From Bacillota bacterium (GTDB lineage Bacteria; Bacillota; Sulfobacillia; RBS10-35; Bu92), in assembly GCA_014896375.1 (NCBI GenBank), contig JADBKN010000020.1, positions 16,263 to 80,262 of the forward strand: a stretch of 64,000 nucleotides of DNA. The letters run 5' to 3'. The notes under the pieces were generated by a model that was not told where the DNA came from, did not search any database, and saw only the letters and a program-made list of their open reading frames with translations. Below, one piece after another: positions 14,870-29,666 of the stretch (the first letter of the stretch is position 1; every line of letters starts with the position of its first letter). Position numbers and translations under genes: made by a program.

Positions 14870-15778
14870 TCACGGGCGCGGCGCCCGCCGCAGCGCGCGG
14901 TACGCGTCGCGGATCTTCTGGAAGTCCTCCCACACCGCCGCCTTCTTCGACGGGTCACGCAACAGGGCCGCCGGATGGTAGGTGGGCATGATGCGCCGCG
15001 CTCCATGCGCATGCCAGATGCCCCGGACGCGCGTGATGCGCGCGTCCGGCCCCAGAAGCGCGCGGGCCGCGGTGCTGCCGAGCGCCACGATGATCGCCGG
15101 GTCGATGAGGTCGATCTTGCGCTCAAGGTACGGCCGGCAGGCGGCCGCCTCCTCGTCCGTGGGGGTGCGGTTGCCCGGGGGCCGGCACATCACCACGTTG
15201 GTGATGTACACCTCTTCCCGCGCGAAGCCGGCCGCCTTCAGGATGCGGTCGAGCAGCTCCCCGGCGCGGCCGACGAACGGGCGTCCAAGCTCGTCCTCGG
15301 TGGCGCCCGGCCCCTCGCCGACCAGCATCACCCGCGCGTGCGGATCGCCTTCGCCGAAGACGACGCCGCGGCAACCCTCGCGCAGGGCGCAGCGCCGGCA
15401 CCCCAGCGCGAAGGCCTGAAGCGTGGCGAGATCCGTGAAGCGTTCGAGCTCCAGGTAAAACGCCGCCGCCCTGGCGGCGCGGGCCAGGCGGCTGTCCGCG
15501 GCCGGCACCGCGCCGGCGGGCGCGCCGGCGCTCGCGCCCGCGCCCCGCGCCGCGCCCGCGCCCCGCGCCGCGGCCACCTCAAGGGCGCCGGCGGCCGTAG
15601 ACTTCAGCGCCTGCGAAGCGGCCGCCTCTGCGGCACCCGGCGTGCCCGCCGGAGCGGCCGGGGCCGCCTCCGGCCCCGCCTCCTCCGGAAAGAGCGGCAA
15701 GAGGATCTGCCCGGGCGGCGGCGCCGGCGCCCGGGCGGCGGAGTCGTCGTCAAACAGCGTCAACTGCATCGGATCCAC
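14870..15778 (-). CDS. uracil-DNA glycosylase, family 4, with a low-complexity N-terminal extension
   Basis: [47 protein letters not shown]...[14 protein letters not shown]...HPAALLR match family-4 UDG motifs. Confidence 0.88.
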
Positions 15779-15903
15779 GTGGGATGCTCCCCGTCCACGC
15801 TACCACAAGACGGTGCGCGGCGGCCGTGCCGGGCCGCCGCAGGAGCGCGCCTGGACCCGGCGGCACGGGCGCGCTCCGGGCCCCCGCGCTGCCGCACGCC
15901 GCG

Positions 15904-17076
15904 TTACTCCCCCGCCAGGATCTCCACGTTCGCCCGCGGGATCGTGATCGTCTCGCCGCTGTCGCGCAATTGCACCGTCACGACGCGCACCCGGGCCTCC
16001 GTCTCGATGGGCGTGAGCTCCGGCGGCAGCGCCGTGACGACGCCGAGGCGGCCGAAGAACGGCTCGCGGATGACGCGCACGCGCGTGCCGATGTCGAGCA
16101 CCGTGGCCTCGTCCTCGGGGTCGGCCGCGCCGGGCGCGCCCGCGTCCGCGGCGGTGGCCGCGGAGACCGCGGCAGCGGCGGCGGACGCCGTGGAGACGAC
16201 GACCTCCGGCCTCATCACGCCGGCGCGGATTTGCGTGGCGCCGTTGATCGAGGCCTCCCGCCCCTCCAGGCGCCGCAGGAGCTGGAAGGTGCGCTCGGCC
16301 ATCGCCATGGGGCCGAAACCCTCCGTGACGATGAGCGTCGCCGGCACGTCCTCCTGGCCGGTGATGGCCACGCCGATGTCGTGCCCCACGTACTCCACAA
16401 GGTCGACGTCGACGATGCCGCCGACCACGATCCCGGCCACGCCGACCTCCCCCGCCTTGCGCAGCGCGCCGCGCGTGACGAGGGAGCCGCCCACCACGAC
16501 GCAGCCCTTGTGCTCGGGCCGGATGCGCGTCTCGTCGAGCTCGTCCGTGGGCCGCTCGACGACCACCCGCAGCGTGCCGAAGCGCTCGCCGCCGACGCCG
16601 AAGATGCCCTGGATGAGGGCGCCCGACGTCTCCACCGTGACGCCCTCGCGCTCCAGGATCTCGACCACGCGGCCGTGGATGTACGCCTGGATCTCTACGG
16701 GGATCGGCGGCTCCCGCAGGGTCAGCTGCCCCGTCACCGTCGAGACGAGCTCGATGGTGCCGCTGATCGGCGAACGCACCTCCCGGGCGCCGAGGCCGAA
16801 GAAGCCGCGCGAGCGCGCGATCGGCTCCCCGGCCGCGACCGCCTCGCCCTGCTTCTTCAGCATGTAGTCGACGATGTCCGAGGGCTGGGCGCCGAGGAGG
16901 TTGGCGAGGTTCAGCGTCTGGGGGTTGCCCGGCAGGAGCGCCCGCGCGACGACCGTGTCCGGGCGGACCGTGTCTCCCGCGCGTACGAGCACCTCACCCG
17001 GGATGGGCAGGCGGCGCGTCTTGCGGATGCGCGTGGAACCGGTGACCTTCAGTCCGGGTGTGTAGGCGCTGGCCAC
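15904..17076 (-). CDS. uncharacterised partner protein B (390 aa; barrel-sandwich-like N-terminus, KOW/SH3-like C-terminus)
   Basis: Paralog of 19748..21097. Shared blocks: RRLPIPGEVLV, GIFGVGGER.G.LRV, ITGQED...TEGFG, LEGR.ASINGATQ.RAG, RVR.I.EP.FG..G.V. Starts 13 nt after the GlmL-like B stop. Confidence 0.85.
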   Translation of the reverse strand: MASAYTPGLKVTGSTRIRKTRRLPIPGEVLVRAGDTVRPDTVVARALLPGNPQTLNLANLLGAQPSDIVDYMLKKQGEAVAAGEPIARSRGFFGLGAREVRSPISGTIELVSTVTGQLTLREPPIPVEIQAYIHGRVVEILEREGVTVETSGALIQGIFGVGGERFGTLRVVVERPTDELDETRIRPEHKGCVVVGGSLVTRGALRKAGEVGVAGIVVGGIVDVDLVEYVGHDIGVAITGQEDVPATLIVTEGFGPMAMAERTFQLLRRLEGREASINGATQIRAGVMRPEVVVSTASAAAAAVSAATAADAGAPGAADPEDEATVLDIGTRVRVIREPFFGRLGVVTALPPELTPIETEARVRVVTVQLRDSGETITIPRANVEILAGE

Positions 17077-17089
17077 GTCCCGTCCCCCC

Positions 17090-18913
17090 TCACGCGCCCA
17101 GGCGGGCCAGCGCCCGCTCCGGGTACAGGTCCAGTGCGGTAAACCAGCGTTGCAGCGCGCGGATGCGCTCCGCCTCCGCGGTGGGAAGGCCGAACGGCCG
17201 GCGGCCGCGCGCGTCGAGGATGATGCCGACGACGCCGCCCTCCAGCCGCGTGCGCACCGTGGCGCCCGGGCCGGCGCCCAGGTGGAGGCCGCGGCCGGGG
17301 CGCAGCTCGGCCTCCGCCGCGGCGCCCACGGGCAGCGGCACGAGGCGGATCTCGCCGTACTCCAGCGTCTCCTGGCGCACGGAGCCGTCCGGCAGGCGGA
17401 GGGAGGCCTCCAGCGCCGGGCCGCCGCCGCGCGGCGGCTCGCCGGCCGGCGCGACCACCGTGCCCAGGCGGATGAGGCAGTCCTTTTCGAAGACCTGCGC
17501 CGCCGCCTCCGGGTTGACGGTGGAGAGCACTCCCAGCTGGGGCATCATGAAGATGCTGTCCACGGCCAGCTCCGTCACGCCCTCCGGCTGGAAGGCGTCG
17601 ATCATCATGAGGGCCGCCTGCACGCGCCGCGGCGCATGGGAGAGCACGCCGCCGGAGCCGATGAGAAGGTTGAGCTTCATGAGGTCGATGAGCGTCTGGC
17701 CGGACATCTGGTAGTCGAAGACGTCGCCCAGGTCCCGTTGCTGGCGCACGCCCTTGAGCCCCACGGCGAGGGTCTTGTGGTGCTCGAAGGCGAGGCGCAA
17801 CGCCTCCCGCGCCACGGCCTGCTCGATCATGAGGTCCTCGAGCGTCTGCGGGATGCTGGTGGGGCGGATCATCTTGTTGCGGATGCGGTTGCGCAGCGCC
17901 GCCTCGTCGATGCGGAAGGGCAGCCAGCGCATGATGTTCGCCACGCCGGCCTCCAGCAGCACATTGGCCATGGAGTAGCTCATGCCCAGGTTCGCGCTCA
18001 CCGTGCGGTTGAAGGTGCCGTCAAAGACCGAGAAGACGTCCGTCGTGGCGCCGCCGATGTCGACGCCGATGACGTGGATGCCGCGCTCGCGCGCCACGGT
18101 CTCGATGAGGAGCCCCACGGCCCCAGGGGTAGGCATGATCGGCGCCGCCGTCCAGGCCATAAGCTTGCTGTAGCCCGGCGCCTGCGCCATGACGTGCTCC
18201 ATGAAGAGGTTGTGGATCTCCTCCCGCGCGGGGCCGAGCCGCTCCTCCTCCAGAACGGGACGGAGGTTGTCGACGATGCGCAGGTCCACCACGTCGCCCA
18301 GCGTGCGGCGCACGTGCTCCCGCGCGTCGCGGTTGCCGGCGTAGATCACCGGCAGCTTGAAGGTGTGGCCGAGGCGGGGCCGCGGCTCGGCCGCCTTGAG
18401 GAGTTCCGCCATCTCCACGACGTGCGTGATCGTGCCGCCGTCGACGCCGCCGGAGAGGAGGATCATGTCCGGGCGCAGCGCGCGGATGCGCTGGATCTTC
18501 TCATGCGGCTTGCGGCCGTCGTCGATGCTGATCGCGTCCATGACGATCGCCCCGGCGCCCAGCGCCGCCCGCTGCGCGCTCTCCGTGGTCATGGACTTGA
18601 CGACGCCCGCCACCATCATCTGCAGGCCGCCGCCGGCGCTCGACGTGGAGAAGTAGGCGTCGACGCCGCTGCCGTCGGCCGCGCGCGGCGTGCGGATGCC
18701 GTCCTCGCTGAGGATGCGCCGGCCGGCCAGCTCCTCCACCTCGCGCACAGCGTTGCGCACGCCCACCGTGACGTCCTCGAAGGGCGCCTCGACGGTCGTG
18801 GGTGCCTCGCCGCGGACGACGAGACGGTACTCGCCCTGCACCTTCTCGATGAGAATCGCTTTGGTCGTGGTGCTGCCACAGTCCGTGGCCAGAATCGCTT
18901 CGATCTCCGCCAC
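17090..18913 (-). CDS. GlmL/MutL-like ASKHA-superfamily ATPase, copy B (607 aa)
   Basis: ILATDCGSTTTKAILI (phosphate-1), GVDIGGATTDVFS (phosphate-2) and LIGSGGVLSHAP (adenosine motif). Overall layout resembles glutamate-mutase GlmL/MutL, with an extra ~140-aa C-terminal extension. Confidence 0.85.
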   Translation of the reverse strand: MAEIEAILATDCGSTTTKAILIEKVQGEYRLVVRGEAPTTVEAPFEDVTVGVRNAVREVEELAGRRILSEDGIRTPRAADGSGVDAYFSTSSAGGGLQMMVAGVVKSMTTESAQRAALGAGAIVMDAISIDDGRKPHEKIQRIRALRPDMILLSGGVDGGTITHVVEMAELLKAAEPRPRLGHTFKLPVIYAGNRDAREHVRRTLGDVVDLRIVDNLRPVLEEERLGPAREEIHNLFMEHVMAQAPGYSKLMAWTAAPIMPTPGAVGLLIETVARERGIHVIGVDIGGATTDVFSVFDGTFNRTVSANLGMSYSMANVLLEAGVANIMRWLPFRIDEAALRNRIRNKMIRPTSIPQTLEDLMIEQAVAREALRLAFEHHKTLAVGLKGVRQQRDLGDVFDYQMSGQTLIDLMKLNLLIGSGGVLSHAPRRVQAALMMIDAFQPEGVTELAVDSIFMMPQLGVLSTVNPEAAAQVFEKDCLIRLGTVVAPAGEPPRGGGPALEASLRLPDGSVRQETLEYGEIRLVPLPVGAAAEAELRPGRGLHLGAGPGATVRTRLEGGVVGIILDARGRRPFGLPTAEAERIRALQRWFTALDLYPERALARLGA

Positions 18914-18931
18914 CCCCCGTGAGTGCGGCCG

Positions 18932-19318
18932 CTACGCCTTGGCGCGGCCGAAGGGCCACCAGCGCCGGCGGCGCGCCGGCCGCTCCCGCTGGAGCCGCTC
19001 GTTCTCCTCGCGCGCCGCCTTCTCCACGCGCTGGATGAAGAGTTCGATGTTGCGCTCGTCCTCAAGGAGATAGCCGATTTCCTGCCCGATCTTGCCGCCG
19101 CCCAAGATGTCGATGTACGGCGCGGCGAAATGGGCCATCTGGCCGAAGATGAAGTTCATCGGCTTGAAGCTCTCCGCCAGGATGATGGCGGGCGTATAGA
19201 GGCCCCACCGCTGGATCTTTTGCAGCGCCCAGTCGATGATCTCGTCCCGCCGCTCCGGCGTGAGCTCGGGCTCGTCCGGGTCGCGCGGCATGCGCGGCAT
19301 CCCCTGCGGCGCAGGCAT
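18932..19318 (-). CDS. small hypothetical protein B (128 aa), paralog of 19343..19684
   Basis: SD GAAGGAGGAG upstream. Shares the core AIILAESFKPMNFIFGQMAHFAAPYIDIL with its neighbour (AILAAETVKPVAWMLAQGVHFFTPHLDIL). Has a charged C-terminal tail. Confidence 0.75.
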   Translation of the reverse strand: MPAPQGMPRMPRDPDEPELTPERRDEIIDWALQKIQRWGLYTPAIILAESFKPMNFIFGQMAHFAAPYIDILGGGKIGQEIGYLLEDERNIELFIQRVEKAAREENERLQRERPARRRRWWPFGRAKA

Positions 19319-19342
19319 CCGTGAACTCCTCCTTCGCTCGCA

Positions 19343-19684
19343 TCAATCCGGGTCTCGACCGTCCGCGCCGGACGTCCCCGGCTTGCGCCCGGAGCCGCGC
19401 CGGCGCGCGCTCGCCTCCATGGACCGGATGAACGCCTCCAGGCGCTCCGGGTCTTCCAGAAACCCGGCGAAGGCCTGCACGTTCCGCTCCCTCAGGCCGC
19501 CGTGCAGGTAGGAGAGGATGTCGAGGTGCGGCGTGAAGAAGTGCACCCCCTGCGCCAGCATCCAGGCGACGGGCTTCACCGTCTCCGCCGCGAGGATGGC
19601 CGGCACCTCCATCCCCCGCTCCCTCAGCCAGCGGCCGAGGCGCGCCTCGATCCGGTCCTCCTGCGGAAGTTCTTCGTCCTTCAT
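19343..19684 (-). CDS. small hypothetical protein A (113 aa), paralog of 18932..19318
   Basis: Start trimmed to MKDEELPQ, preceded by GGGAGG. Same conserved core as small protein B. Confidence 0.72.
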   Translation of the reverse strand: MKDEELPQEDRIEARLGRWLRERGMEVPAILAAETVKPVAWMLAQGVHFFTPHLDILSYLHGGLRERNVQAFAGFLEDPERLEAFIRSMEASARRRGSGRKPGTSGADGRDPD

Positions 19685-19747
19685 GCGCCCGCCTCCCGCC
19701 CGAAGGTTGCCCCGGGCCGGCAAAAGTTACCGCGGGCGCAAAAGACC

Positions 19748-21097
19748 TCAGAAGAGCTCCACGTTCTTGCGCGGCACCACCACCACGCCGCTCTCCGTCT
19801 CCACCTCCACCACCGGCACGCGCGCCTCCGTCTCGATCTGCCGGTCCTCGCGCGGCAGCGAGACGATCGTGCCAATGGCGCCGAAGTACGGCTCGTTGAT
19901 GATGCGCACGCGCTGGCCCACGGCCAGGTCCTCGTCCGCGACGGCGACCTCCCCCGCCGGACCCTCGTGGTCGAGGAACGGCACCACGATCTCCGGCCGG
20001 ATGGCTCCGGCGCGCACCTGGGTGGCGCCGTTGATCGAAGCGCGGCGCCCCTCCAGCGCCTTCAGCGCGCGGAAGGCCTGCTCCCGCATGGCGAGGGAGC
20101 CGAAGCCCTCCATGAGGATCACCGTCATGTCGATGTCCTCCTGCCCGGTGATGCCCACGCCGAGCTTCACTCCCATAGAGCGCACGAGGTTCAGGTAGTG
20201 CGCCGTGCCGGCGATCACCCCGGCGCAGCCGACCTGCAACGCCTTCGCGAGCGCCTCGTCCGTCGCCTGTGCCCCGCCCACGATGATCTGGCCCTTGCAG
20301 GACTCGTCGATCAGGTCCGGCGTGAGCGGCTGGTCCGGCCGTTCCGTGAGCACGCGCAGCACGCCGTGCCGCTCGCCCCCCAGGCCGAAGATGCCCGTGA
20401 CGCGGACGGCCGGCGCCTCCACGACGACGCCGCGCCCTTCGATCTTCTCCACCACCGTGCCCTCGATGTAGGCGCGCACGACGACTTCCTTGAACGGGCG
20501 GGCGATCGTCACGTGGCCGGTCTGCTCGTTGACCTCCGCGATGACGCCTGAGATGGGGGCGTAGCAGCACTTCGTGAAGAAGGCGGACGTCTCGCCCTTC
20601 TTGGCGATCATCGCGCCCTTCTTCACCTCCTGGCCGACCTTCACCACCATGTGCTGCGGCACCTCGCGCGGCCGGCAGCCGATCTCGAAGGCCACGTCCA
20701 CCTTCACGGGCGGCTCCTCGCGGCCGAACTCCTCCCGGATGACGACGCGGCCCGACTTGGCGGAGATGTCCTCGACCACGCCGTCGATCGGGCACTCGTA
20801 CTCCTTCTGGCCGTAGAGCCCCGTGGAGAGGCCGCGCGCGATGACCTGCTTGGCCTTGACGCGATCGCCCACCTTGACCAGCATGGCCTGCGGCAGCTGC
20901 TCGGGCTGCACGCCGACGAGCCGCGCCACCGGCACCACCCAGGGGATGCCCGGCCGCAGCGCGATGCGCGCCACCGGCTGGTCGGGCTGGACGCGCTCGC
21001 CGACGTCGACCAGCACCTCGCCCGGCAGCGGCAGGCGGCGCAGCTTCCGCAGGCGGACGATCGGATAATCAGCGACCGAATAGGCGGAAGCGGGCAC
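19748..21097 (-). CDS. uncharacterised partner protein A (449 aa; barrel-sandwich-like N-terminus, KOW/SH3-like C-terminus)
   Basis: Paralog of 15904..17076 with an extra N-terminal insertion. The N-terminus MPASAYS aligns with MASAYT of copy B, which supports the 29-nt overlap with the GlmL-like A 3' end. Confidence 0.85.
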   Translation of the reverse strand: MPASAYSVADYPIVRLRKLRRLPLPGEVLVDVGERVQPDQPVARIALRPGIPWVVPVARLVGVQPEQLPQAMLVKVGDRVKAKQVIARGLSTGLYGQKEYECPIDGVVEDISAKSGRVVIREEFGREEPPVKVDVAFEIGCRPREVPQHMVVKVGQEVKKGAMIAKKGETSAFFTKCCYAPISGVIAEVNEQTGHVTIARPFKEVVVRAYIEGTVVEKIEGRGVVVEAPAVRVTGIFGLGGERHGVLRVLTERPDQPLTPDLIDESCKGQIIVGGAQATDEALAKALQVGCAGVIAGTAHYLNLVRSMGVKLGVGITGQEDIDMTVILMEGFGSLAMREQAFRALKALEGRRASINGATQVRAGAIRPEIVVPFLDHEGPAGEVAVADEDLAVGQRVRIINEPYFGAIGTIVSLPREDRQIETEARVPVVEVETESGVVVVPRKNVELF

Positions 21098-22982
21098 GCT
21101 TGGGCTCCTCCTTCGCCTGGACGGCCGGGCCGCCCAGGGGATTCTCGCGCTGGTAACGCTCCAGCACGTCCAGCGGGTAGGCGTTCATGGCCGCGATCCA
21201 GCTCGTCAGCTTGGCCACGCGCTCGGACGTGGAGGTGGGGACCTCGATCGGCCGGCCGCGGCCGTCGAAGATCAGCCCCACGAGGCCGCCGTGCACCTCG
21301 GCCTCCAGCGGCTTGCCCGGCCCGGCGCCGACATCGAAGCCGCGCTGCGGCACGAGCGCCACGCGCGCCTTCTGCCCGACCGGCAGCTCCACGCGCCGGA
21401 TCTCCCCGTAGTTCAGGTCGAAGCTCTCCTTGCGCCCGTCCGCGAACGTCACCGTCACCTGGCAGGCGGGGCGGCCGTCCCGTCCCCTGCCGACCGGCGC
21501 GATGCACGTGCCGAGGCGCACGAGGCAGTCGCGGTCGAAGACCTCCGCCGCGATCTCCGGGTGCACGGAGGCGAGCACGCCGAGATGCGGTGTCATGAAG
21601 ACGCTGTCCACGGCCAGCTGCGTGATGCCCTCGGGTTCGAAGGCGTCCATCAGCATGAGCGCCGCCTGCTCGCGCCGCGGCGCGTGGGAGAGCACGCCGC
21701 CGGAGCCGAGGAGGATGTCGAGGTCCATCATTTTGATGATCTCGACGCCCTCCGAGCGGCTGACGGTGTCCGCCTTCGAGGACCAGGCGCCGAGCCCGCG
21801 CTCCTCCTGCTCCACCTTGCGCGCGAGGCTCTTGTGGTGCACGAAGGACAGCCGCAGCGCCTCCCGCGCGAGCGCCTGCTCAAGGATGAGCTGGTGCAGC
21901 GTCTGCGGGATGGCCGTGGGGCGGACCATCTTGTTGCTCACCCAGTCCGCGAACGCCTCCTCGTCGATGGCGAACGGCACCCAGCGCTGGACGTTGGCGA
22001 AGCCGGCCTCCTCGTAAACGTTTGTGATGCTGTAGCTCATGCCCAGGTTGGCGCTCACCGTGCGCGTGAACGTGCCGCCGAAGTCCGAGAAGACGTCCGT
22101 GGTGGCGCCGCCGATGTCCACGCCCACGATGTTCGCGCCATAGTCCCGCGCCATGACCTGGATGATGTGCCCCACCGCGCCCGGGGTGGGCATGATCGTG
22201 GCGTCGACCCACTCCATGAGCTCGCCGTACCCCGGCGCCTGCGCCATCACGTGGTTCATGAAGAGGTCGTGGATGGCCTCGCGCGCCGGCCCGAGGTTTT
22301 CCAGGTCGTGACGCGGCCGCAGGTTCGGCACGAGGTGCACTTCGAGATCCGGCTCCAAGATGGACTGCACCATGTCCTGCGCGTCCTTATTGCCGGCGTA
22401 CACCACCGGCAGGCGGAACGTGGAGCCGAAGCGCGGCTGGGGGTTGGCCTGGACGATCGTCTCCGCCAGCGCCGCGAGGTACTGCACAGAGCCGCCGTCC
22501 ACGCCGCCGGAGAGCAGGATGATGTCCGGCCGCAGCTGCGTGATGCGCGTGATCTGCTCCGAGGTGGAACGGCCGTCGTCGACGGCGATGACGTCGAGCA
22601 CCACCGCGCCGGCGCCGAGCGCCGCACGGTGCGCGCTGGACGCGCTGATGTTGCTCACGAGCCCCGCGACCATCATCTGCAGGCCGCCGCCCGCGCTGGA
22701 CGTCGACACGTATAAGTCCACACCCTCATCACCGCGCTTAGGACGGATCAGCCGACCGTCCGCGCCGAGGATGCGGCGGCCTGTCACCTCTTCCACCCGG
22801 CGGATGGCCTTGCGCACGCCGATCATGACGTTCTCCCACGGCGCCTCCACCGTGGTCTGCATCTCGCCGCGCGCCACCAGCCGATACTCGTCGCCGACCT
22901 TCTCGATGAGGATGGCTTTGGTCGTCGTGCTGCCCACGTCCGTCGCCAGGATCGACGCCGGCGGACGCGAGGTCTGCGTCAT
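21069..22982 (-). CDS. GlmL/MutL-like ASKHA-superfamily ATPase, copy A (637 aa)
   Basis: ILATDVGSTTTKAILI, GVDIGGATTDVFS and LLGSGGVLSHAP. Collinear with copy B along its whole length. SD GGAAGGAGGGG upstream. Confidence 0.85.
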   Translation of the reverse strand: MTQTSRPPASILATDVGSTTTKAILIEKVGDEYRLVARGEMQTTVEAPWENVMIGVRKAIRRVEEVTGRRILGADGRLIRPKRGDEGVDLYVSTSSAGGGLQMMVAGLVSNISASSAHRAALGAGAVVLDVIAVDDGRSTSEQITRITQLRPDIILLSGGVDGGSVQYLAALAETIVQANPQPRFGSTFRLPVVYAGNKDAQDMVQSILEPDLEVHLVPNLRPRHDLENLGPAREAIHDLFMNHVMAQAPGYGELMEWVDATIMPTPGAVGHIIQVMARDYGANIVGVDIGGATTDVFSDFGGTFTRTVSANLGMSYSITNVYEEAGFANVQRWVPFAIDEEAFADWVSNKMVRPTAIPQTLHQLILEQALAREALRLSFVHHKSLARKVEQEERGLGAWSSKADTVSRSEGVEIIKMMDLDILLGSGGVLSHAPRREQAALMLMDAFEPEGITQLAVDSVFMTPHLGVLASVHPEIAAEVFDRDCLVRLGTCIAPVGRGRDGRPACQVTVTFADGRKESFDLNYGEIRRVELPVGQKARVALVPQRGFDVGAGPGKPLEAEVHGGLVGLIFDGRGRPIEVPTSTSERVAKLTSWIAAMNAYPLDVLERYQRENPLGGPAVQAKEEPKRARFRLFGR

Positions 22983-23024
22983 GAGAGCCCCTCCTTCCAG
23001 AATATTCCCCCGCGATATAGAAGA

Positions 23025-23051
23025 GGGGCCCGCGTCCCGGACCCGGGCCCC
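23025..23051 (-). terminator. GC hairpin plus U-rich tract between the membrane-gene block and the ATPase block (weak terminator or processing site)
   Basis: Minus strand reads GGGGCCCG-loop-CGGGCCCC followed by UCUUCUAUAU. It sits inside the 97-nt gap 22983..23079. Confidence 0.35.
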
Positions 23052-23079
23052 CCAATCCCCCGCTGGACTTCAGGCCGGT

Positions 23080-23709
23080 CTAGCCTCCGGCCAGGTGCAG
23101 CCAGTCTCCCAGGATGTAGTGCATGCGGGCGTAGAACAGGTTGTAGCGGTAGAGCACCGTGTTGCCGAACGCGGCGCCTAGGGCGACCATGATCGCCCAG
23201 CGGCCCAACCAGACGCCGCCCTTCATCACCGGGTTGGCATCGCGCCGGATGGTGAAGAAGAAGTACATCACCGTGCCGAGCAGCGTCAGCAGGAGGATCC
23301 AGTTGTTGATCGTGCCGGAGACGCTGTCCGTCCAGAGATCGTAGAACGAGTTCGTCAGCTGGCCGATGAACACGGCGGGCGTGAAGCCCAGCACGTAGCC
23401 CGCGCCCCAGCCGAGCGCCAGAGAGAGCGGATAGCGCGCCACCCAGGCGATCGACGGGATGTAGCGGGTATACACCAAGAGGCCCGCGATGATCGGGATG
23501 ATGTACACCCATTGCCCCGCCGCCAGGCTGTCCTTGTTGCCGGTGAACGTCGGCCAGATGTACGTGTGCCAGTAGTAGCCGATCGACCAGCCGTAGGCCA
23601 GGCCGATGTAGATGTGCTGGATCAGCTCCCAGATCGGGTTCTGGTGATCCGCGAGGTACGTCCACACGGCGATCGTGCAGATCGCCCCCGCGAGAATGCC
23701 CCAGTCCAT
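23080..23709 (-). CDS. integral membrane protein, unknown family (209 aa, about 6 hydrophobic segments)
   Basis: Trp/Tyr-rich hydrophobic protein (GILAGAICTIAVWTYL...WVYIIPIIAGLLVY...ILLLTLLGTVMYFFF). Codon usage is coherent, and GC is lower than in its neighbours. Confidence 0.8.
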   Translation of the reverse strand: MDWGILAGAICTIAVWTYLADHQNPIWELIQHIYIGLAYGWSIGYYWHTYIWPTFTGNKDSLAAGQWVYIIPIIAGLLVYTRYIPSIAWVARYPLSLALGWGAGYVLGFTPAVFIGQLTNSFYDLWTDSVSGTINNWILLLTLLGTVMYFFFTIRRDANPVMKGGVWLGRWAIMVALGAAFGNTVLYRYNLFYARMHYILGDWLHLAGG

Positions 23710-23749
23710 TGCGTCACCTCCTCCAGCCAGACTGGCCGGCGCCGACCGC

Positions 23750-24580
23750 CTAGGCCGCCTTCTTGCGCGTGGTCAGCCAGGCGACGTTCGCCAGCACGAT
23801 GAGCAGCGTCACGTAGATCGCGGCCAGCGACTGGCCGTCCTGCTGGGCCGCAGCCGCGCCCGGATGGCCGACGAGCTGCTCGTACTCCGCCGCGCCGCGG
23901 GAGCCGGCGAGCATGGCCGCGAACTGGCCGGACGCCACATACGGCTTGTTCTGCGCCACGGACATGGTGATGGAACCCACGAGCAGCGGGATGCCGGTCG
24001 GCTGGGACACGTACGGCAGCCACGCGTCACCCGCGCCCGGCGAGCCGATGTCCGCCGCGAAGATCGCCGCCACGTGGTCCTTGTCCACCTTGGGCAGGTC
24101 CTTCATGATCGGGAACTGATCGAGCGACTGGCCCGTCTGGTCGACGTTCTTGGCCGCCGAGATGAGGTCCTGCGTGATCAGCTGGTACGTCGTCGAGCTG
24201 CCCGGCTTGTAGCCGATGTTGATCCAGTCGACGCCGTACTTCTTGCCCATCTCCTTGGCGACCTGGTCGATCGCCTGCCCCGCCAGCTTCGGCCCGTTCA
24301 CCCAGGCGGCGTCAAAGACGGCCAGCCGCAGGTTGTGGGCGAAGGCCTGGTAGGCGAGGGCCTTGACCATCGGCGTGATCTCGCCCTGCGCGCCGATGTC
24401 GTACGAGGCGCCGACGAGGATGATCGAGCCTTCGGGCAACTTCTGGATCGTGTCGTAGAACTTCTGCGTATCCGGGCTCACCGTGATGGGCAGGCCCAGG
24501 GGATGGATGATGACCGCGCCGATGATGATGAAGATGATGGCCCAGATCCAGCGCCGGTCGATGTCAAGCGCCCATTCCAT
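23750..24580 (-). CDS. membrane-anchored protein with a large soluble alpha/beta-like domain and a C-terminal TM segment, unknown family (276 aa)
   Basis: N-terminal TM WIWAIIFIIIGAVIIHPL, a ~200-aa soluble region, and a C-terminal TM LAAIYVTLLIVLANVAWL followed by TTRKKAA. Confidence 0.8.
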   Translation of the reverse strand: MEWALDIDRRWIWAIIFIIIGAVIIHPLGLPITVSPDTQKFYDTIQKLPEGSIILVGASYDIGAQGEITPMVKALAYQAFAHNLRLAVFDAAWVNGPKLAGQAIDQVAKEMGKKYGVDWINIGYKPGSSTTYQLITQDLISAAKNVDQTGQSLDQFPIMKDLPKVDKDHVAAIFAADIGSPGAGDAWLPYVSQPTGIPLLVGSITMSVAQNKPYVASGQFAAMLAGSRGAAEYEQLVGHPGAAAAQQDGQSLAAIYVTLLIVLANVAWLTTRKKAA

Positions 24581-24630
24581 GCAGCGACACCTCCTTCCTC
24601 GATCGCTTCATCGCCTGCACGAGTGAGATC

Positions 24631-25254
24631 TCACTGGCCAGCACCGCCAAGGTGGGCCCGCTCCAGACCCAAGAGGATGCGCAGCGCCACGGCGAAGCTG
24701 CCCAGGTAGGCGCCCAGGGCGATGCCGCGCATCGCCGACGAGTTCGGCACATCCATGAACCAGCGCGCGACGTTGTTCCAGCCGTGGATGAGGGTGTCGC
24801 CGATCGGCGCCACGCCGAGCATGACGATGACGGCGGTGATCATCAGCACGGTGGCCTCACGCGTGCGCACGCGGAACGCGCGGTACGCGGCCGACGTGAT
24901 GAAGAACGCCAGCAGCGCGAAGATCGTCGCGTCCGTCGGGTTCAGGATGTTGTTGTAGATCCAGTTGGCCTGCGGGCCTTCCACCGTCTGCTGGATGGTC
25001 AGGATGCCGTACCCGTACATGCAGATCAGCAGGATGAGGCTGTAGATCCACTTGGAACGGCGCCGCTGGATGTTCTTGCCGTGGACGATCGTCAGGCTGA
25101 CGACGCCCAAGAGGAAGAACATCGCATACATGACCTGGTACATCCGGTTGGCGGTGGTGAACCAGCCGAGCTGGTCGACGGCGAAGAGGTACTTCGCCAC
25201 GATGACGAAGAGGCCCGCGAGGACCGTCAGGATCATGGGGATTTCTTTCCGCAT
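24631..25254 (-). CDS. integral membrane protein, unknown family (207 aa, about 5-6 hydrophobic segments)
   Basis: SD GAGGGAGGTG 5 nt before ATG 25254. Hydrophobic segments include ILTVLAGLFVIVAKYLF, MYAMFFLLGVVSLTIV, IYSLILLICMYGYGIL and IFALLAFFITSAAY. Confidence 0.8.
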   Translation of the reverse strand: MRKEIPMILTVLAGLFVIVAKYLFAVDQLGWFTTANRMYQVMYAMFFLLGVVSLTIVHGKNIQRRRSKWIYSLILLICMYGYGILTIQQTVEGPQANWIYNNILNPTDATIFALLAFFITSAAYRAFRVRTREATVLMITAVIVMLGVAPIGDTLIHGWNNVARWFMDVPNSSAMRGIALGAYLGSFAVALRILLGLERAHLGGAGQ

Positions 25255-25302
25255 CCGTACACCTCCCTCTTCAGGGGACGGTGCGCGCCAGCGCCAGCCT
25301 TC

Positions 25303-26130
25303 CTAGCTCTTCAGGAACGTCGCCAGGAAGTTGTTGCTGCTGAACGTGGCCACGAGCGTCCCGAGGATGATCACGGCGAAGAGAAGGAACTTGTAGAAGT
25401 CCTCGCCGACGACCGTGCCGGTGAGGATCGGTTCCTTCGAGATGTAGGCGCTGGCGGCGTAGATCTCCTCGCCGATCAGCGCGTAATCGCAGCCGGCCAC
25501 GAAGAACGGCAGCTGGGACGTCGACGCCGTGCCGCCGACCTGGATGGCCCCGGCCAGCGCGCCGGCCTCGATGAAGATCATCGCCTCCGCGAAGAACGGG
25601 CCGCCGAAGAGGATCTGCGCGGCCGGCTTCTCCGCCGCGAGGATCTCCAGGACGCCGGCGACGTACGCGAACTGCCAGTCCGTGATGAAGCGGACGTCGT
25701 CCGGGTTGAAGGCGTCCGGGCGTCCAGCCTCCAGGTAGGCCTGGCGGATGATCTCCTCGTTGATCGCGTACACGACGACGTCGGGGACGGTGTTGATGAG
25801 GCGGGTGTCGTACCGGGCGCACGTCTTGGCGACATGGCCGAGCACCGGGAACGAGGCGATGGTCTGCGGATCCGTGATTCCCGGCAGGCCCATCGTGTAG
25901 TGCACCGGGCGGCCCATCTCCGTGGCGCGGCCCACGGCCTCCTCCAGCGCCTCCAGGCCCGCGATCTTGTGGATCTCCCGTACCGCCTGGCCGGCCCGGG
26001 CGCGGTTGATCATGACGTATACCAGGATGGCGAAGATGAGCACGGCGATGAACGCGCCCGCCTGGCCCGGGACGAAGATGCCCCACACGGGCGACTTGGC
26101 CTCAGCCGCGAGCAGGGAGAGGAATCCCAT
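25303..26130 (-). CDS. membrane protein, unknown family (275 aa; TM segments at both ends flanking a soluble region)
   Basis: Start trimmed to MGFLSLL (ATG 26130), 6 nt after GGAGGTG. TM segments are AGAFIAVLIFAILVYVMI and FLLFAVIILGTLVATF. First gene after the promoter-like element. Confidence 0.8.
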   Translation of the reverse strand: MGFLSLLAAEAKSPVWGIFVPGQAGAFIAVLIFAILVYVMINRARAGQAVREIHKIAGLEALEEAVGRATEMGRPVHYTMGLPGITDPQTIASFPVLGHVAKTCARYDTRLINTVPDVVVYAINEEIIRQAYLEAGRPDAFNPDDVRFITDWQFAYVAGVLEILAAEKPAAQILFGGPFFAEAMIFIEAGALAGAIQVGGTASTSQLPFFVAGCDYALIGEEIYAASAYISKEPILTGTVVGEDFYKFLLFAVIILGTLVATFSSNNFLATFLKS

Positions 26131-26153
26131 GCTTCTCACCTCCTCTCTTTCTT

Positions 26154-26175
26154 AAAGAGGGCACCCGCCCTCTTT
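26154..26175 (-). promoter_or_regulatory. 9-bp-stem hairpin in the 5' UTR immediately upstream of the SD of gene 25303..26130
   Basis: AAAGAGGGC-GGGU-GCCCUCUUU on the minus strand, followed by AAGAAAGAGAGGAGGUGAGAAGCAUG. Confidence 0.45.
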
Positions 26176-26202
26176 GGTCCGGAGATATTCGTGAGAAGGG
26201 GA

Positions 26203-26231
26203 TATTATCCTGCCGCGGAGGGTATTGCGAA
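26203..26231 (-). promoter_or_regulatory. sigma-70/SigA-like promoter candidate for the 26.1-15.9 kb cluster
   Basis: Minus strand reads TTCGCA-18 nt-TAATAT in the 110-nt gap after the upstream operon. The -10 lies inside the 10-mer GGATAATATC, which recurs upstream of the nucleotidase gene at 37687..37696. Confidence 0.45.
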
Positions 26232-26249
26232 CGTCCGGCACGGCGGGGC

Positions 26250-26678
26250 TCAGGCCTGGGGTGCCCCGTCCCCCTCGCCCAGGCGGCGCCGGACAAAGGC
26301 CAGCACGGCCTCGCGGTTGCCCGCGAAGCGGAGGAAGACCCCCTTGTGGATGCGGTTGCGCAGCACGGAGGGGTCATAGGCGAGAAGCACCCCGTCCGGG
26401 TACACGGTGTAGCCGATGAAGCGGTCCCACGGCTTCACGCCGGAGGGGAGGACCACACGCACGCTGACGCCCTCATCCGTGAGGGTGTACTCGTTGGGGA
26501 AGAGATAGTGGGCGAGCGGGCTCACCGTGCCGAGCACGGCCACGAGCAGCCCGGCCGGGCCGAGGAGGTAGTGCCCGAAGGCCCATGACACGGCCATGGC
26601 GGCCAGCACTGCCAAGGAGACGAGCGGCCGCTCCATGAAGGGATGCACCGTCCAGCTGAGGCGCTCCGGCGGCTTCAT
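26250..26678 (-). CDS. small membrane protein (two TM segments plus a beta-rich, PH-like C-terminal domain), hypothetical
   Basis: RPLVSLAVLAAMAVSWAFGHYLLGPAGLLVAVLGTV followed by a soluble domain. The ATG overlaps the stop of the asparaginase-II-like gene (ATGA), so it belongs to the upstream operon. Confidence 0.6.
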   Translation of the reverse strand: MKPPERLSWTVHPFMERPLVSLAVLAAMAVSWAFGHYLLGPAGLLVAVLGTVSPLAHYLFPNEYTLTDEGVSVRVVLPSGVKPWDRFIGYTVYPDGVLLAYDPSVLRNRIHKGVFLRFAGNREAVLAFVRRRLGEGDGAPQA

Positions 26679-27678
26679 GGCCGGCCGCCACTGCCTTCCG
26701 CCACGGCGATCTCCCCGACCACGTCGCCGGCCACGTTGCGCAAGGGCGGCCGCCGCCAGCGCGCGAGCGCCTCGGCCTCCTCCGGGCGCAGGAGCCCGAA
26801 GCGCTCAAGGAGAGCCATCGCCGCCGGCGCCTCCGCGCGGCTGCCGCCGTCCTCCACCTTGAGCGCGAAGCCCCAGTCTCCCGTCTCCGGGCCCACGCAG
26901 AGGACGCCGTCCGCCCCGGGCTTGGCCCAGAGCCGCGCGCGCTCCATGAGCTCCACGGGGAAGTGGCCGCGTCCGCGCGTGAGGTGCGGGTGGGCGCGCA
27001 TGGCGGCGATCACGCGCCGCACAGCCGCGCGCTCCTCCTCCGTGAGGGACGCGCCGCCGGCGCTCATTTGCGCGAAGATACTCGCCATCTGGCGCAGGGT
27101 GAAGGCCGGCGCGGGCAGGCCGCAGCCGTCGACGCCGAAGCGCAGCTCGTCCCGCGGCACGCCGGCCGCGCGCGCCGCGAGCTCCAATATGCGCTGCTGG
27201 AGCGGGTGGTCGGGGCGCGCGTAGCCCTCGACGGGCCAGCCGGCTGCGCGGCAGGCGGCCGTCATGAGCGCGTGCTTGCCGGAGCAGTTGCTGTGCAGGA
27301 CCGTGGGACGGCCGCCGGCCAGGCGGCGGCGGGCATCGGAGTCCAGAGGCTCGTGCGCGCCGCAGGTGAGTTCCTCCGGCGAGCCGCCCGTGCGCTCAAG
27401 CAGGCCCGCCACCACGGCGACGTGCTCGTCGCTGCCCACATGCGAGGCGCAGGCCACCGCCAGCTCCTCCGGCCGCACGCCGAAGCGCGCCTCCACCCCG
27501 GCCACGAGGCAGGCCGCCGCCTGGAGCGGCTTAAAGGCGGAGCGCATGAAGGTGAGGAGGTCCGCGTCCCCCGTCGCATGCAGGAGGCGCCCCTCGGCGT
27601 CCACGACGGCCGCGTGCACGCGGTGGCGGGATTCCACGATGCCGCCGCGGCGGACTTCGACGATCAGCGGGCCGCTCA
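26675..27678 (-). CDS. asparaginase II family protein (AnsA/PF06089-like)
   Basis: IVEVRRGGIVESRHRVHAAV...MRSAFKPLQA...LHSNCSGKHALM...KPGADGV. Start set at GTG 27678, overlapping the upstream stop (GTGA). Confidence 0.75.
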
Positions 27679-28446
27679 CCGCGCCGCCTCCGCCGCGCCG
27701 GCGCGGACGGCGTTCTCGCGGGCGCGCGCGGCGGCCGCGGCCACGAACGCCTCGAAGAGCGCCATGAACTGCGGGTGGCGGTCGACAAGCCCTTCCGGAT
27801 GCCACTGGACGCCCAGAATCCACGCCCCGCCCGGCGCCTCGACGGCCTCCACCACGCCGTCCGGCGCCGTCGCCGCGACGACGAGCCCCTCACCCACGCG
27901 CTCGACCGCCTGGTGGTGGAAGGAGTTCACGCCGCGCACGCCCTCTCCCAGGAGGCCGGCGAGGCGCGTGCCCGGCCGGATCTCCACCGTGTGGCCGAGG
28001 TGCCAGCGCGGCCCCTTTTGCGCGTGCTGGATGGCGCCGGGACGCTGCGCGCGCAGGTCCTGCACCAGCGTGCCGCCGAAGGCCACGTTCAGCACCTGGA
28101 TGCCGCGGCAGATGGCGAAGATGGGCAGACCGCGGCGGCGCGCCTCGTCGATCAGTGCGATCTCCGTGAGGTCGCGGTCCGGGTCGACGCTGCCGAGATC
28201 CGGGTGCGGAGCCTCGCCGAAGCGGGCCGGGTCGACGTCCTCGCCGCCGGAGAGCAGAAGGCCGTCCAGCGCGCGCGCCAGGGCGCGCGCCGTGTCCTCG
28301 TCGGCCAGCGGCGGCAGGAGGACGGGGGCGCCGCCCGCCCGCGTCACGGCGGCGACGTACGTCTCGCTCTGCCCTAGGTGCACGCGGCCGCGGGCGTCCA
28401 CGCCGCGCTCCGCGGTGATGCCGATGATGGGCTTCAGCGCGATCAC
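27676..28446 (-). CDS. gamma-glutamyl-GABA hydrolase-like class-I glutamine amidotransferase (peptidase C26)
   Basis: KPIIGITA...LLLSGGEDVDP...PIFAICRGIQVLNVAFGGTLVQDL...VNSFHHQAV...GVQWHPE. Confidence 0.82.
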   Translation of the reverse strand: MIALKPIIGITAERGVDARGRVHLGQSETYVAAVTRAGGAPVLLPPLADEDTARALARALDGLLLSGGEDVDPARFGEAPHPDLGSVDPDRDLTEIALIDEARRRGLPIFAICRGIQVLNVAFGGTLVQDLRAQRPGAIQHAQKGPRWHLGHTVEIRPGTRLAGLLGEGVRGVNSFHHQAVERVGEGLVVAATAPDGVVEAVEAPGGAWILGVQWHPEGLVDRHPQFMALFEAFVAAAAARARENAVRAGAAEAAR

Positions 28447-29666
28447 TCCTCTTCCAAGGCGGCTCCGGTGTAGACCCGAGGCAGCCGTTCATCCAGGGAG
28501 GTCAAGATTTCGTAGGCGATGGTGCCGGCCCACTGGGCGAGGTCGTTCGCGGTCAGCCGCGCCTCTCCCTGCGCGCCGAGGAGCACGACCTCGTCCCCGG
28601 GCGCGGCGGGTGCGGCCAAGGCGGGGGGTGCGGCCACGGCGGCGGGTGCGGCCGCGGCGGCGGGCGCCGGTCCGAGCCCGATCATGAACTGGTCCATGCA
28701 CACGCGGCCGCGCACGGGCCGCTCCACCCCGCCCACGAGCACCCGCCCCACGTTGCTGAACGCCCGCCGGTAGCCGTCCGCGTAGCCCACCGGCACCGTG
28801 CCGATCCATTCGGGCGCGCTCGTCACGTAGGTCGCGCCATAGCTTATGGCTTCGCCCGCGGCCACGGCCTTCACCTGCGCAAGGCGCGCCTTCCAGGCGA
28901 GGGCCGGCTGGAGCGGCGCGGGCGTCGTCACGAAGGGGCTGGGGGCGTACCCGTAGAGGCCGATGCCGAGGCGGACGAGGTCGAAGTGCGCATCCGGGAA
29001 GCGGAAAAGGCCGGCTGTGTTGGCCGCGTGGCGCAGGCCCGGTCGCAGCCCGGCCGCCTCAAGGCGCGCGAGGAAGGCGGAGAAGCGCTCGATCTGACGC
29101 CGCGTAGGCGCCGGATCCTCTTCGTCGGCGCAGGCGAAGTGAGTGAAGGTCCCCTCCCACAGGACGAGCGGCTCGCGCGCCAGCGCCTCCGCCGCGGCGA
29201 GGCCGCGCTCGTCCGGCGGCACGCCCAGCCGGCCCATGCCGGTGTCCACCTTGAGGTGCACGCGCGCCGGCCGGCCGGTCTCGCGCGCCAGGCGGGCCAG
29301 CTCACGTGCCTCCTCCGCGCGGAAGACGGTGAGTGCCACATCGTGCCGGACCGCTTCGCGCGCGAGCTCCGGGGGCGTCCAGCCGAGGATGAGGATGGGT
29401 GCGCGCAGGCCGGCGGCGCGCAACTCCAGCGCCTCCGAGAGCACCGCCACCCCGAGCCAGGCGGCGCCCGCGCGCAGGGCGGCGCGCGCCACGGGCACGG
29501 CGCCGTGGCCGTAGGCATCCGCTTTCACCACGGCCATCAGCTGCGCGCCGGGACGCAGCGCCTGCCGGGCAGTGCGCACGTTGTGGGCGATGGCGTCGAG
29601 GTCGACCTCCACCCAGGCGGGGCGGCCGGGCGCCGGCGCCCCCTCCGCGCGGCGCGGCGACGTCAT
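28443..29666 (-). CDS. alr: alanine racemase
   Basis: AWVEVDLDAIAHNV...MAVVKADAYGHGAV (PLP lysine motif)...VPVGYADGYRR...GRVCMDQ. Start ATG 29666 follows GGGAGGCGG; the 651-aa track ORF is an over-extension. Confidence 0.9.
   Translation of the reverse strand: MTSPRRAEGAPAPGRPAWVEVDLDAIAHNVRTARQALRPGAQLMAVVKADAYGHGAVPVARAALRAGAAWLGVAVLSEALELRAAGLRAPILILGWTPPELAREAVRHDVALTVFRAEEARELARLARETGRPARVHLKVDTGMGRLGVPPDERGLAAAEALAREPLVLWEGTFTHFACADEEDPAPTRRQIERFSAFLARLEAAGLRPGLRHAANTAGLFRFPDAHFDLVRLGIGLYGYAPSPFVTTPAPLQPALAWKARLAQVKAVAAGEAISYGATYVTSAPEWIGTVPVGYADGYRRAFSNVGRVLVGGVERPVRGRVCMDQFMIGLGPAPAAAAAPAAVAAPPALAAPAAPGDEVVLLGAQGEARLTANDLAQWAGTIAYEILTSLDERLPRVYTGAALEEE

Follow-up and report, generated by a model that had tools for sequence, protein, structure and literature searches.

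GlmL is an ATPase without a known small-molecule substrate whose gene sits between glmS and glmE. It has been described as a chaperone for the reactivation of glutamate mutase and is regarded as acting by protein remodelling (PMC4682846). Here we analyze a locus in a 64-kb stretch of DNA from a Bacillota bacterium (assembly GCA_014896375.1, contig JADBKN010000020.1, positions 16,263 to 80,262 of the forward strand; we call this whole stretch the window and count positions from its first letter) in which two ATPases related to GlmL, A1 and A2, are encoded together with two beta-rich partners (B1 and B2), two small proteins (S1 and S2), four membrane proteins (M1-M4) and a protein encoded upstream (U). 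The A proteins share with GlmL (PF13941; NF040745) the ASKHA core and every conserved motif. Combining gene-neighbourhood, profile and structure-prediction data, we suggest that the locus encodes a self-contained and widely conserved two-module ATP-driven membrane machine that either functions as a transporter or performs work on the outer face of the membrane, a reading to which we give an even chance of being correct. The system is not a reactivase of a B12-dependent mutase.

Other described systems resemble parts of this locus. The A subunits of hydantoinases and oxoprolinases, HyuA/OplA (PF01968/PF05378), belong to the same ASKHA branch as the A proteins, give partial matches on the phosphate-1 and phosphate-2 regions and are ATP-dependent with a second, non-homologous subunit, comparable to A with B; however, the matches are local stretches of 48 residues, no HyuB-type partner is encoded, and the architecture of B is different. 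The diol and glycerol dehydratase reactivases DdrAB, GdrAB and PduGH consist of an ASKHA large subunit of ~610 amino acids (aa) and a small subunit of ~115 aa and carry out ATP-driven remodelling of a partner. These subunit sizes are similar to those of A and S, but no protein of the cluster has a reactivase-family match in Pfam, S shows no homology to anything, and no dehydratase is encoded nearby. In concept, the locus is paralleled by the mechanotransmission ABC systems FtsEX, MacB and LolCDE and by the Hsp70-driven import motor mtHsp70-TIM23, in which a cytoplasmic or matrix ATPase works membrane proteins with large extracytoplasmic domains; the motor of mtHsp70-TIM23 has the ASKHA fold, although none of the four systems is homologous to the cluster.

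An earlier reading made from the sequence only had proposed ten minus-strand genes between 15904 and 26130. All ten open reading frames (ORFs) were found at exactly these coordinates, while a conserved eleventh gene, U, just upstream had been missed. In the direction of transcription the features are:

26250 to 26678, minus strand: U, 142 aa, predicted to be membrane-anchored with a soluble C-terminal domain of ~85 aa
26204 to 26231, minus strand: promoter-like site TTCGCA-16-GATAAT, between U and M1
26125 to 26205, minus strand: structured 5' leader of M1, from a fold computation against shuffles
25303 to 26130, minus strand: M1, DUF6754 membrane protein, start codon ATG at 26130
24631 to 25254, minus strand: M2, membrane protein with six predicted transmembrane helices
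23750 to 24580, minus strand: M3, transmembrane anchor, predicted extracytoplasmic domain of ~225 aa and C-terminal transmembrane helix
23080 to 23709, minus strand: M4, polytopic, aromatic-rich protein with at least four hydrophobic segments
21069 to 22982, minus strand: A1, GlmL-like ASKHA ATPase, diverged paralogue
19748 to 21097, minus strand: B1, beta-rich, predicted cytoplasmic partner, 449 aa
19343 to 19723, minus strand: S1, small protein; the start is probably the ATG at 19684 (113 aa, 19343-19684)
18932 to 19318, minus strand: S2, small protein with a charged C-terminal region
17090 to 18913, minus strand: A2, GlmL-like ASKHA ATPase, canonical copy
15904 to 17076, minus strand: B2, partner of canonical length, 390 aa

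The six ATPase, partner and small proteins had been read as two paralogous sets, and the comparisons bear this out, with identities of 58% for A1/A2, 38% for B1/B2 and 36% for S1/S2 (the last with an E value of 2e-13). In contrast to these pairs, BLASTP and profile-profile comparison (hhalign) revealed no paralogy among M1-M4. A duplicated five-gene module in which M1/M3 and M2/M4 would form pairs was considered and rejected on this ground. By sequence and co-occurrence, the locus comprises a predicted integral block of four unrelated membrane proteins (module 1, M1-M4) and a predicted peripheral cytoplasmic ATPase module (module 2) made up of A, its obligatory partner B, S and the small membrane protein U.

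The evidence that the two modules belong together comes from their conservation. In a scan with B that included one genome per species, at least 575 species-representative genomes proved to encode relatives of B, and 80 loci were kept; the B homologues number 1974. Hidden Markov models (HMMs) were built for all eleven proteins and mapped on 85 related loci. B directly follows A in the case of 84 of 87 full-length A genes, and in the mapped loci M1-M2-M3-M4 always form one block with a fixed order. A and B together with at least two of M1-M4 are present in 23 of the 80 loci from the B scan, and these full loci span Bacillota (including Symbiobacterium thermophilum), Armatimonadota, Planctomycetota (Scalindua), Zixibacteria, Eisenbacteria, Krumholzibacteria, Zipacnadia, Bathyarchaeia and Methanosarcinales. 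In three further loci that end at a contig edge, two of them from Latescibacterota (L072 and L080), B is directly followed by M1-M4. Close relatives, i.e. loci anchored on DUF6754 proteins with 53-60% identity to M1, contain the entire cluster in the same order.

Outside Bacillota the gene order is (U-)S-A-B-M1-M2-M3-M4 whereas in the window it is U-M1-M2-M3-M4-A-B-S-S-A-B. Copy numbers also vary: one S-A-B set accompanies two M blocks in Zixibacteria L066 and in L056 and L075, Bathyarchaeia L057 has two of each module, and the lineage of the window has two A/B sets and one M block. In L016 and L057 there is a strand inversion. Ratios of 1:2, 2:1 and 2:2 are as expected for separable sub-complexes, and the finding that the linkage survives rearrangement, strand inversion and new flanking genes is strong evidence of functional coupling. 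It could be argued that the adjacency of the membrane and ATPase genes is fortuitous and reflects lineage-specific synteny: the modules are split in some lineages, and because the whole Bacillota neighbourhood is syntenic, from alr through the peptidases to UDG and tsaE, conservation in Bacillota by itself could be inherited gene order. Against this argument, the linkage is found in at least nine other phylum-level lineages in which order, strand, copy number and flanks differ, and we consider a fortuitous arrangement extremely improbable.

The sequence-only reading had envisaged a membrane-associated ATP-driven machine, and it gains support on two counts: in many phyla the membrane block is linked to the ATPase module, with differences in gene order and in copy number, and searches of Pfam, NCBIfam, PADLOC and the PDB together with Foldseek searches with the B1 and M1 models placed the membrane proteins and the partners in no characterized family.

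With respect to the ATPases, PF13941 (MutL/GlmL) matches A1 with 399.6 bits and A2 with 431.3 bits over model positions 1-450 of 450 (gathering threshold 27 bits), and the claimed resemblance to GlmL/MutL thus holds at the level of the family. It does not extend to orthology: the GlmL equivalog model NF040745 gives 218.2 bits for A1 and 228.0 bits for A2 at a cut-off of 475, and TIGR01319 (glmL_fam subfamily) gives 161.4 and 173.4 bits at a cut-off of 204.05. Compared to true GlmL, for which the glmS-glmL-glmE-mal operon of Peptoclostridium acidaminophilum served as the reference, A1 and A2 are 28.5-28.8% identical over GlmL residues 4-455 only, have an extra beta-rich C-terminal domain of ~130 aa and lack a 15-aa GlmL insertion. 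A1 and A2 are not GlmL orthologues. The core motifs DxGSTxxK, SSAxGGL, PDxxLxxGGxDGG, GVDxGGATTDVxS and GGxL are common to A and true GlmL, and none of them varies in a set of 26 A proteins that ranges from archaea to Firmicutes. The same is the case for the phosphate-1, phosphate-2 and adenosine motifs DxGSTTTK, DIGGATTD and GSGGVLSHAP, which place these proteins in the ASKHA superfamily; in the window, as had been noted, the translations contain ATDVGSTTTK and ATDCGSTTTK, VDIGGATTDVFS and GSGGVLSHAP. The 26 A proteins share 49-70% identity, and such identity across domains of life therefore indicates strong constraint.

If A1 and A2 were ordinary GlmL/MutL reactivases, they would serve a B12-dependent mutase encoded elsewhere in the genome. 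The Pfam matches, the common core motifs and the described function of GlmL speak for this possibility. However, the scores below both GlmL cut-offs, the low identity to true GlmL combined with the extra C-terminal domain, and the high mutual identity of the A proteins across domains of life all argue against it, as does the constant linkage of A to B and not to a mutase. In line with the earlier statement that the 64 kb contain no mutase, tblastn searches of the window with four proteins taken from a true glm operon, GlmS, GlmE, methylaspartase and a cob(I)yrinic acid a,c-diamide adenosyltransferase, had a best E value of 0.5; these four proteins were the ones sought, and no explicit search was made for diol or ethanolamine lyases. 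Likewise, GlmE and Mal are absent from the 85 related loci, and GlmS-like proteins occur in only three of them, all Fimbriimonadales loci that contain B but neither A nor M genes. We therefore consider the reactivase explanation highly improbable. Rather, A has probably retained an ATP-driven action of the GlmL kind and applies it to a different client. That the action is ATP-driven we infer solely from the intact nucleotide-binding motifs.

The GlmS-like B12-binding-domain protein in those three loci (~30% identity to GlmS) is the product of the sole B12-related gene near any member, 2-3 kb from B (L065 2705-3136, L062 20-400 and L083 5999-6367), and is followed by an unassigned 461-aa protein and then probably by TatC, to judge from a TatC match at the corresponding position of L054.

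The two paralogous sets differ in their relation to the homologues in other phyla. A2 is 62-66% identical to A of Armatimonadota, Planctomycetota, Zixibacteria and others whereas A1 is 52-56% identical to single-copy A proteins, and the order in other phyla is S-A-B. We therefore regard S2-A2-B2 as the canonical unit and A1-B1-S1 as a lineage-specific diverged copy; judged by these identities and the gene order, the ATPase module is duplicated here into a canonical set and a diverged set with a predicted MinD-like tail.

As a whole, the partner protein B matches no Pfam family. An RnfC_N-type barrel-sandwich domain matches B1 residues 147-194 with 42.3 bits, above the Pfam cut-off, and NqrA_N matches weakly; for B2 nothing exceeds the Pfam threshold. 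This domain invites a comparison with NqrA and RnfC, peripheral subunits of Na+-NQR and Rnf: B1 has 449 aa and the NqrA model 446 positions, and B is similarly cofactor-less (we found no Fe-S or flavin motifs in B), peripheral and encoded together with ~200-aa polytopic proteins and a ~270-aa protein with a transmembrane anchor. Nevertheless, the full-length models score far below their cut-offs (TIGR01945, RnfC, 30 vs 246; nqrA 15 vs 321), the RraA/PA-like domain and the KOW domain are unrelated to these subunits, and the likeness to Rnf/Na+-NQR is thus confined to the N-terminal barrel-sandwich domain.

In the AlphaFold2 model of B1 (predicted local distance difference test score, pLDDT, 82.9), two barrel-sandwich hybrid repeats are followed by a beta sandwich, an alpha/beta domain at ~270-375 and a KOW-like barrel. 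B2 has one barrel-sandwich repeat compared to two in B1, and its 390 aa fit the length of B elsewhere (350-380 aa in other phyla). Foldseek matches of B1 in the PDB are at the level of domains only (Spt5/NusG KOW, domain II of Thermotoga NusG, RpoC2 SI3, RraA and PA); those to NusG domain II and RpoC2 SI3 are sandwich-barrel hybrids, and that to RraA has a TM-score of 0.51 on the target. Neither a whole-chain fold analogue by Foldseek nor a sequence relative was found in the PDB. The invariant residues of B cluster in GITGQED, EGFG and NGATQIRAGAIRPE in the RraA/PA-like alpha/beta domain, suggesting that these motifs form a ligand site or a critical interface.

The membrane block had been described as four membrane or membrane-anchored proteins that could be placed in no transporter or respiratory family. 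The membrane character is confirmed, with six transmembrane (TM) helices in M2, a TM-soluble domain-TM arrangement in M1 and M3 and at least four hydrophobic segments in M4. No family was found for M2, M3 and M4, but M1 belongs to DUF6754 (PF20539; 304.6 bits at a threshold of 27 bits), a family without known function that has more than 6500 homologues in a 90%-identity database and 2442 representative clusters at 50% identity. The AlphaFold2 model of M1 (pLDDT 89.6) consists of a TM helix (27-48), six beta-alpha units and a second TM helix (237-266), and has no significant fold match in the PDB by Foldseek. Most DUF6754 members have a signal peptide and variable N-terminal domains of 100-1000 aa before the first TM helix, and these ectodomains include fn3 repeats, a PQQ/BamB-like beta-propeller and Cu_amine_oxidN1 as well as extended regions without any Pfam match; long members among the representatives P0287-P0430 are P0384 (1272 aa), P0309 and P0305. 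Given the signal peptide and N-terminal ectodomains of its relatives, M1 is therefore predicted to have its N-terminus outside and its alpha/beta domain, which is rich in invariant acidic residues, in the cytoplasm. M1 of the window has no ectodomain at all.

M2 is predicted to have both termini inside. Its conservation is highest in the C-terminal tail and in the cytoplasmic loop that follows TM4 (AYRAFRxRTxEA). From an alignment of 29 members, M3 has an N-in TM anchor with a conserved IDRR and a C-terminal TM helix with a K/R tail, and its central domain of the alpha/beta type should, on this predicted topology, face outward. No consistent Pfam match was obtained for M3 among these 29 members or for M2, M4, S and U among 74 mixed members, and profiles of M2, M3 and M4 have no relative in the PDB. 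The same 103 sequences and the 11 cluster proteins were without Pfam or NCBIfam matches to known primary transporters (ABC, P-type, F/V/A-type, ECF and TRAP), M2 and M4 members do not match the Rnf-Nqr family, and neither a P-loop ATPase nor a J-domain protein was detected in the cluster with Pfam and NCBIfam. Solved structures exist for none of the components of the cluster, B being taken as a whole.

How the ATPase module could be held at the membrane is suggested by U and by the C-terminal tails. U has one TM segment by hydropathy, and a second hydrophobic stretch and a beta-rich C-terminal domain were read by eye. HMM-detected U homologues are co-directional in 33 related loci, among them loci of the Eisenbacteria type with U-S-A-B, and U travels with the ATPase genes even without the M genes (U-A-B-S-A-B). 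Like S1 and S2, U of the window has no Pfam match. Of 33 A1-type proteins, 28-31 carry the A1-type tail ...GG(L/V)Fxx(L/F)x(K/R)(K/R), also written GGLFxRLF[KR], whereas all 53 A2-type proteins lack it; A1 of the window ends in the basic and aromatic KRARFRLFGR. Many S proteins also have basic and aromatic C-terminal tails, e.g. RRRRWWPFGR in S2, the charged C-terminal region of which ends in RRRRWWPFGRAKA. We liken the A1-type tail to the membrane-targeting tail of MinD, which we take to be ...GFLKRLFGG. The tails of A1-type and S proteins, amphipathic and MinD-like as predicted, fit peripheral membrane docking. The tail is lineage-specific and present on one paralogue only. Its similarity to the tails of MinD and FtsA is functional only; A is neither a P-loop ATPase as MinD nor actin-like as FtsA. 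A hint in the same direction comes from a fusion protein in a Bacillota genome (MAG020, L037 5922-9950, P0241, 1332 aa) in which a signal peptide, an M1-family zinc aminopeptidase (HEIAHQW...E) and a TM helix precede a complete A. Because this fusion is a singleton among 5.8 billion proteins, it is only a hint of membrane association.

The tails also lend themselves to a different explanation, in which the cluster forms a membrane-anchored scaffold or functions in envelope biogenesis or remodelling and A is a polymerizing or chaperone-like protein (as FtsA, MreB, PilM or Hsp70) that organizes or energizes the ectodomains of M1 and M3 and does not transport a solute. The resemblance of the amphipathic tails to those of FtsA and MinD, the high variability of the M1 ectodomains in proteins of up to 1272 aa and the predicted outward-facing domain of M3 would be in agreement with such a function. 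On the other hand, A is of the GlmL/hydantoinase type and not of the actin type, with only marginal Pfam matches to the MreB-like and BcrAD families, the system is found in monoderm and diderm bacteria as well as in archaea and, therefore, is tied to no single envelope type, and M1 of the window lacks an ectodomain. We regard a scaffold as quite unlikely.

Combining the topology, tail and conservation data, we suggest that U, the A1 tail and the S tails would tether A, B and S to the inner face of the membrane, where these would dock on M1 at its cytoplasmic domain and on M2 at its conserved cytoplasmic loops. Binding and hydrolysis of ATP in A would cause the domain closure typical of ASKHA proteins, which the related GlmL is thought to use for remodelling of its partner protein; B would pass this motion on to the membrane block, and the block would then move a substrate across the membrane or do work outside by means of the ectodomains of M3 and M1. 

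Several observations weigh against this reading. The mechanism, i.e. the interactions, the ATPase activity and the transport, is one that we infer in its entirety. M2 and M4 have neither transporter-like homology nor obvious conserved intramembrane polar residues. The invariant motifs of B look like an active or ligand site, which fits an enzyme better than passive transmission. Moreover, the modules also occur apart. In Fermentithermobacillaceae the arrangement is U-A-B-S-A-B and M genes are missing within 6-10 kb, three Armatimonadota loci have A and B with no M gene within 7 kb, L087 (10001-13068) has M1-M4 with no A or B within 10 kb, and in WOR-3 and Fimbriimonadales B is found alone among unrelated genes. 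In the B-only loci (L035, L038, L040, L042, L045, L047, L049, L054, L058, L060, L065 and L083), which lack A and M genes within at least 3 kb, B has ~375 aa and keeps the invariant motifs, and B may thus have an activity of its own. Because the modules are separable, A/B may function without M1-M4. As to the surroundings of these loci, M1-M4 of L087 are preceded by a gene for an MscS-family channel and followed by ClpP-like and YlzJ genes, B of L038 (WOR-3) is near TMEM260-like, transketolase, FtsEX and M23 peptidase genes, and B of L054 (Fimbriimonadales) is near TatC and a two-component system.

The main rival to a membrane machine is a soluble enzyme with its transporter. In this model, A and B would together be a hydantoinase/oxoprolinase-type enzyme that depends on ATP and has a small nitrogenous metabolite as its substrate, for example a carboxylase, a kinase or a hydrolase of lactams or amides. 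B would contribute a second active site, and M1-M4 would be the uptake system dedicated to this substrate. The GlmL family lies in the hydantoinase branch, and Hydantoinase_A matches A2 with 28.5 bits (cut-off 22.9) in the phosphate-2 region; for A1 the score of 15.7 bits is below the cut-off, and the match is limited to a 48-residue stretch and does not amount to full-length Hydantoinase_A plus Hydant_A_N. The catalytic-looking invariant motifs of B, kept even in B-only lineages, also fit an enzyme. The neighbouring genes offer further arguments: the Armatimonadota loci with A and B but without M genes adjoin a creatininase or a class-III aminotransferase, the syntenic Bacillota neighbourhood contains peptidases S58, M55 and C26, asparaginase II, a PALP enzyme and alanine racemase, and in two Eisenbacteria-type loci the glycine-cleavage genes gcvT-gcvH-gcvPA-gcvPB lie directly upstream, with lplA (lipoate-protein ligase) downstream in L056, all co-directional.

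However, no neighbour family recurs across phyla among 110 flanking ORFs of 27 non-syntenic loci, in which glycine-cleavage genes, Aminotran_3 and Peptidase_C26 are each found in ~2 loci, and the context leans only weakly toward amino-acid or peptide metabolism. Furthermore, the cluster has no Pfam match to a Hydantoinase_B (HyuB) partner and no other hydrolase partner, the A1 and S tails, U and the TM fusion argue for a function of A/B itself at the membrane, and the barrel-sandwich and KOW folds of B are adaptor-like. On balance we find the combination of enzyme and transporter unlikely. With regard to the glycine-cleavage genes (L079 2912-7322; L056 3002-7383 and 18255-19121; two of 85 loci), we note that the barrel-sandwich domains of B are lipoyl-domain-like.

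The layout of the cluster bears on its expression. Neighbouring genes are 13-97 nucleotides (nt) apart, except for A1 and B1, which share 29 nt. A strong Shine-Dalgarno (SD) sequence had been proposed for each gene; sequences of the GGAGG type precede M1 (SD AGGAGGTGA, start ATG 26130), M2-M4, A1, B1 and S2, S1 has one if its start is ATG 19684, B2 is preceded by a G-rich SD-like run (GAGGGGGG), and the sequence of A2 is weak. The promoter-like element noted earlier is the sole match to TTCGCA-16-GATAAT in the 11.7 kb from 15300 to 27000; because shuffled sequence yields on average 0.5 +/- 0.8 such matches in 11.7 kb, it is weak, consensus-level evidence, and the site at 26204-26231 may be an internal promoter. 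The ATG of U overlaps the stop codon of asparaginase II (ATGA, 26675-26678) and transcription may therefore begin further upstream than this site; alr, peptidase C26 and asparaginase II may share a transcript with U and perhaps with the entire cluster.

The M1 leader (26125-26205) has a minimum free energy of -35.9 kcal/mol (z = -4.67; none of 200 shuffles was as stable) and contains a perfect 9-bp hairpin (AAAGAGGGC/GCCCTCTTT), and its outer helix pairs the region around the SD sequence and the start codon. The leader may serve to control translation; no alignment of the leader to the two closest relatives was obtained. At the module boundary, the 97-nt gap between M4 and A1 contains a GC-rich hairpin with a weak T tail (23026-23044, minus strand), which is not above chance (one found and 2.5 expected).

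In the window, the cluster is flanked upstream by alr, peptidase C26 and asparaginase II and downstream by UDG, tsaE, tsaB, rimI and peptidase S51. Rfam searches of the window and seven related loci revealed no riboswitch; the sole Rfam match in the window is a glmS ribozyme (RF00234, 56282-56391, minus strand, 71.2 bits at a threshold of 37), which is unrelated to the cluster. A defence system was considered and rejected, with no match to PADLOC-DB for 10 proteins at E <= 0.01, and so was a mobile or plasmid-borne origin, with no B on plasmids and with all A-like plasmid matches being true GlmL. In the alanine racemase ORF (28443-30398, minus strand), the Pfam domain is preceded by ~260 N-terminal aa rich in Arg and Gly; this stretch is probably an over-extension of the ORF in GC-rich DNA (GC content of the window 58-77% in 2-kb segments) and not a real domain, and many long antisense ORFs in the window are similar artefacts.

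The modular design of this locus has implications for the protein families involved. Apart from the ATPase superfamily and one barrel-sandwich domain nothing is recognizable and no known kind of system fits, and for this reason we consider the system new in kind; our search, which did not reach subscription-only literature, found no description of it and no paper mentioning DUF6754. To our knowledge, all established primary membrane energizers use a small set of ATPase folds. An ASKHA ATPase wired to four membrane proteins would, if our reading is correct, add a new kind of energizer, and we tentatively propose, as possible rather than probable, that S-A-B/U and M1-M4 constitute a new primary-active class, of transporter or of transmembrane mechanotransducer, powered by an ASKHA ATPase instead of a P-loop, P-type or rotary one. 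The poorly understood GlmL/MutL family gains a second and much larger context, DUF6754 gains a context, and at least five unannotated families are defined (B, S, U, M2, M3, M4). The system is open to experiment because Symbiobacterium thermophilum, a cultured species, has the full cluster. If the reading holds true, the general role of the GlmL family would be ATP-driven remodelling of a partner protein, and machines of this class would occur in hundreds of species of bacteria and archaea, most of them uncultured, ranging from Firmicutes, Armatimonadota, Planctomycetota (the anammox bacterium Scalindua) and candidate phyla of the FCB group to Bathyarchaeia and Methanosarcinales.

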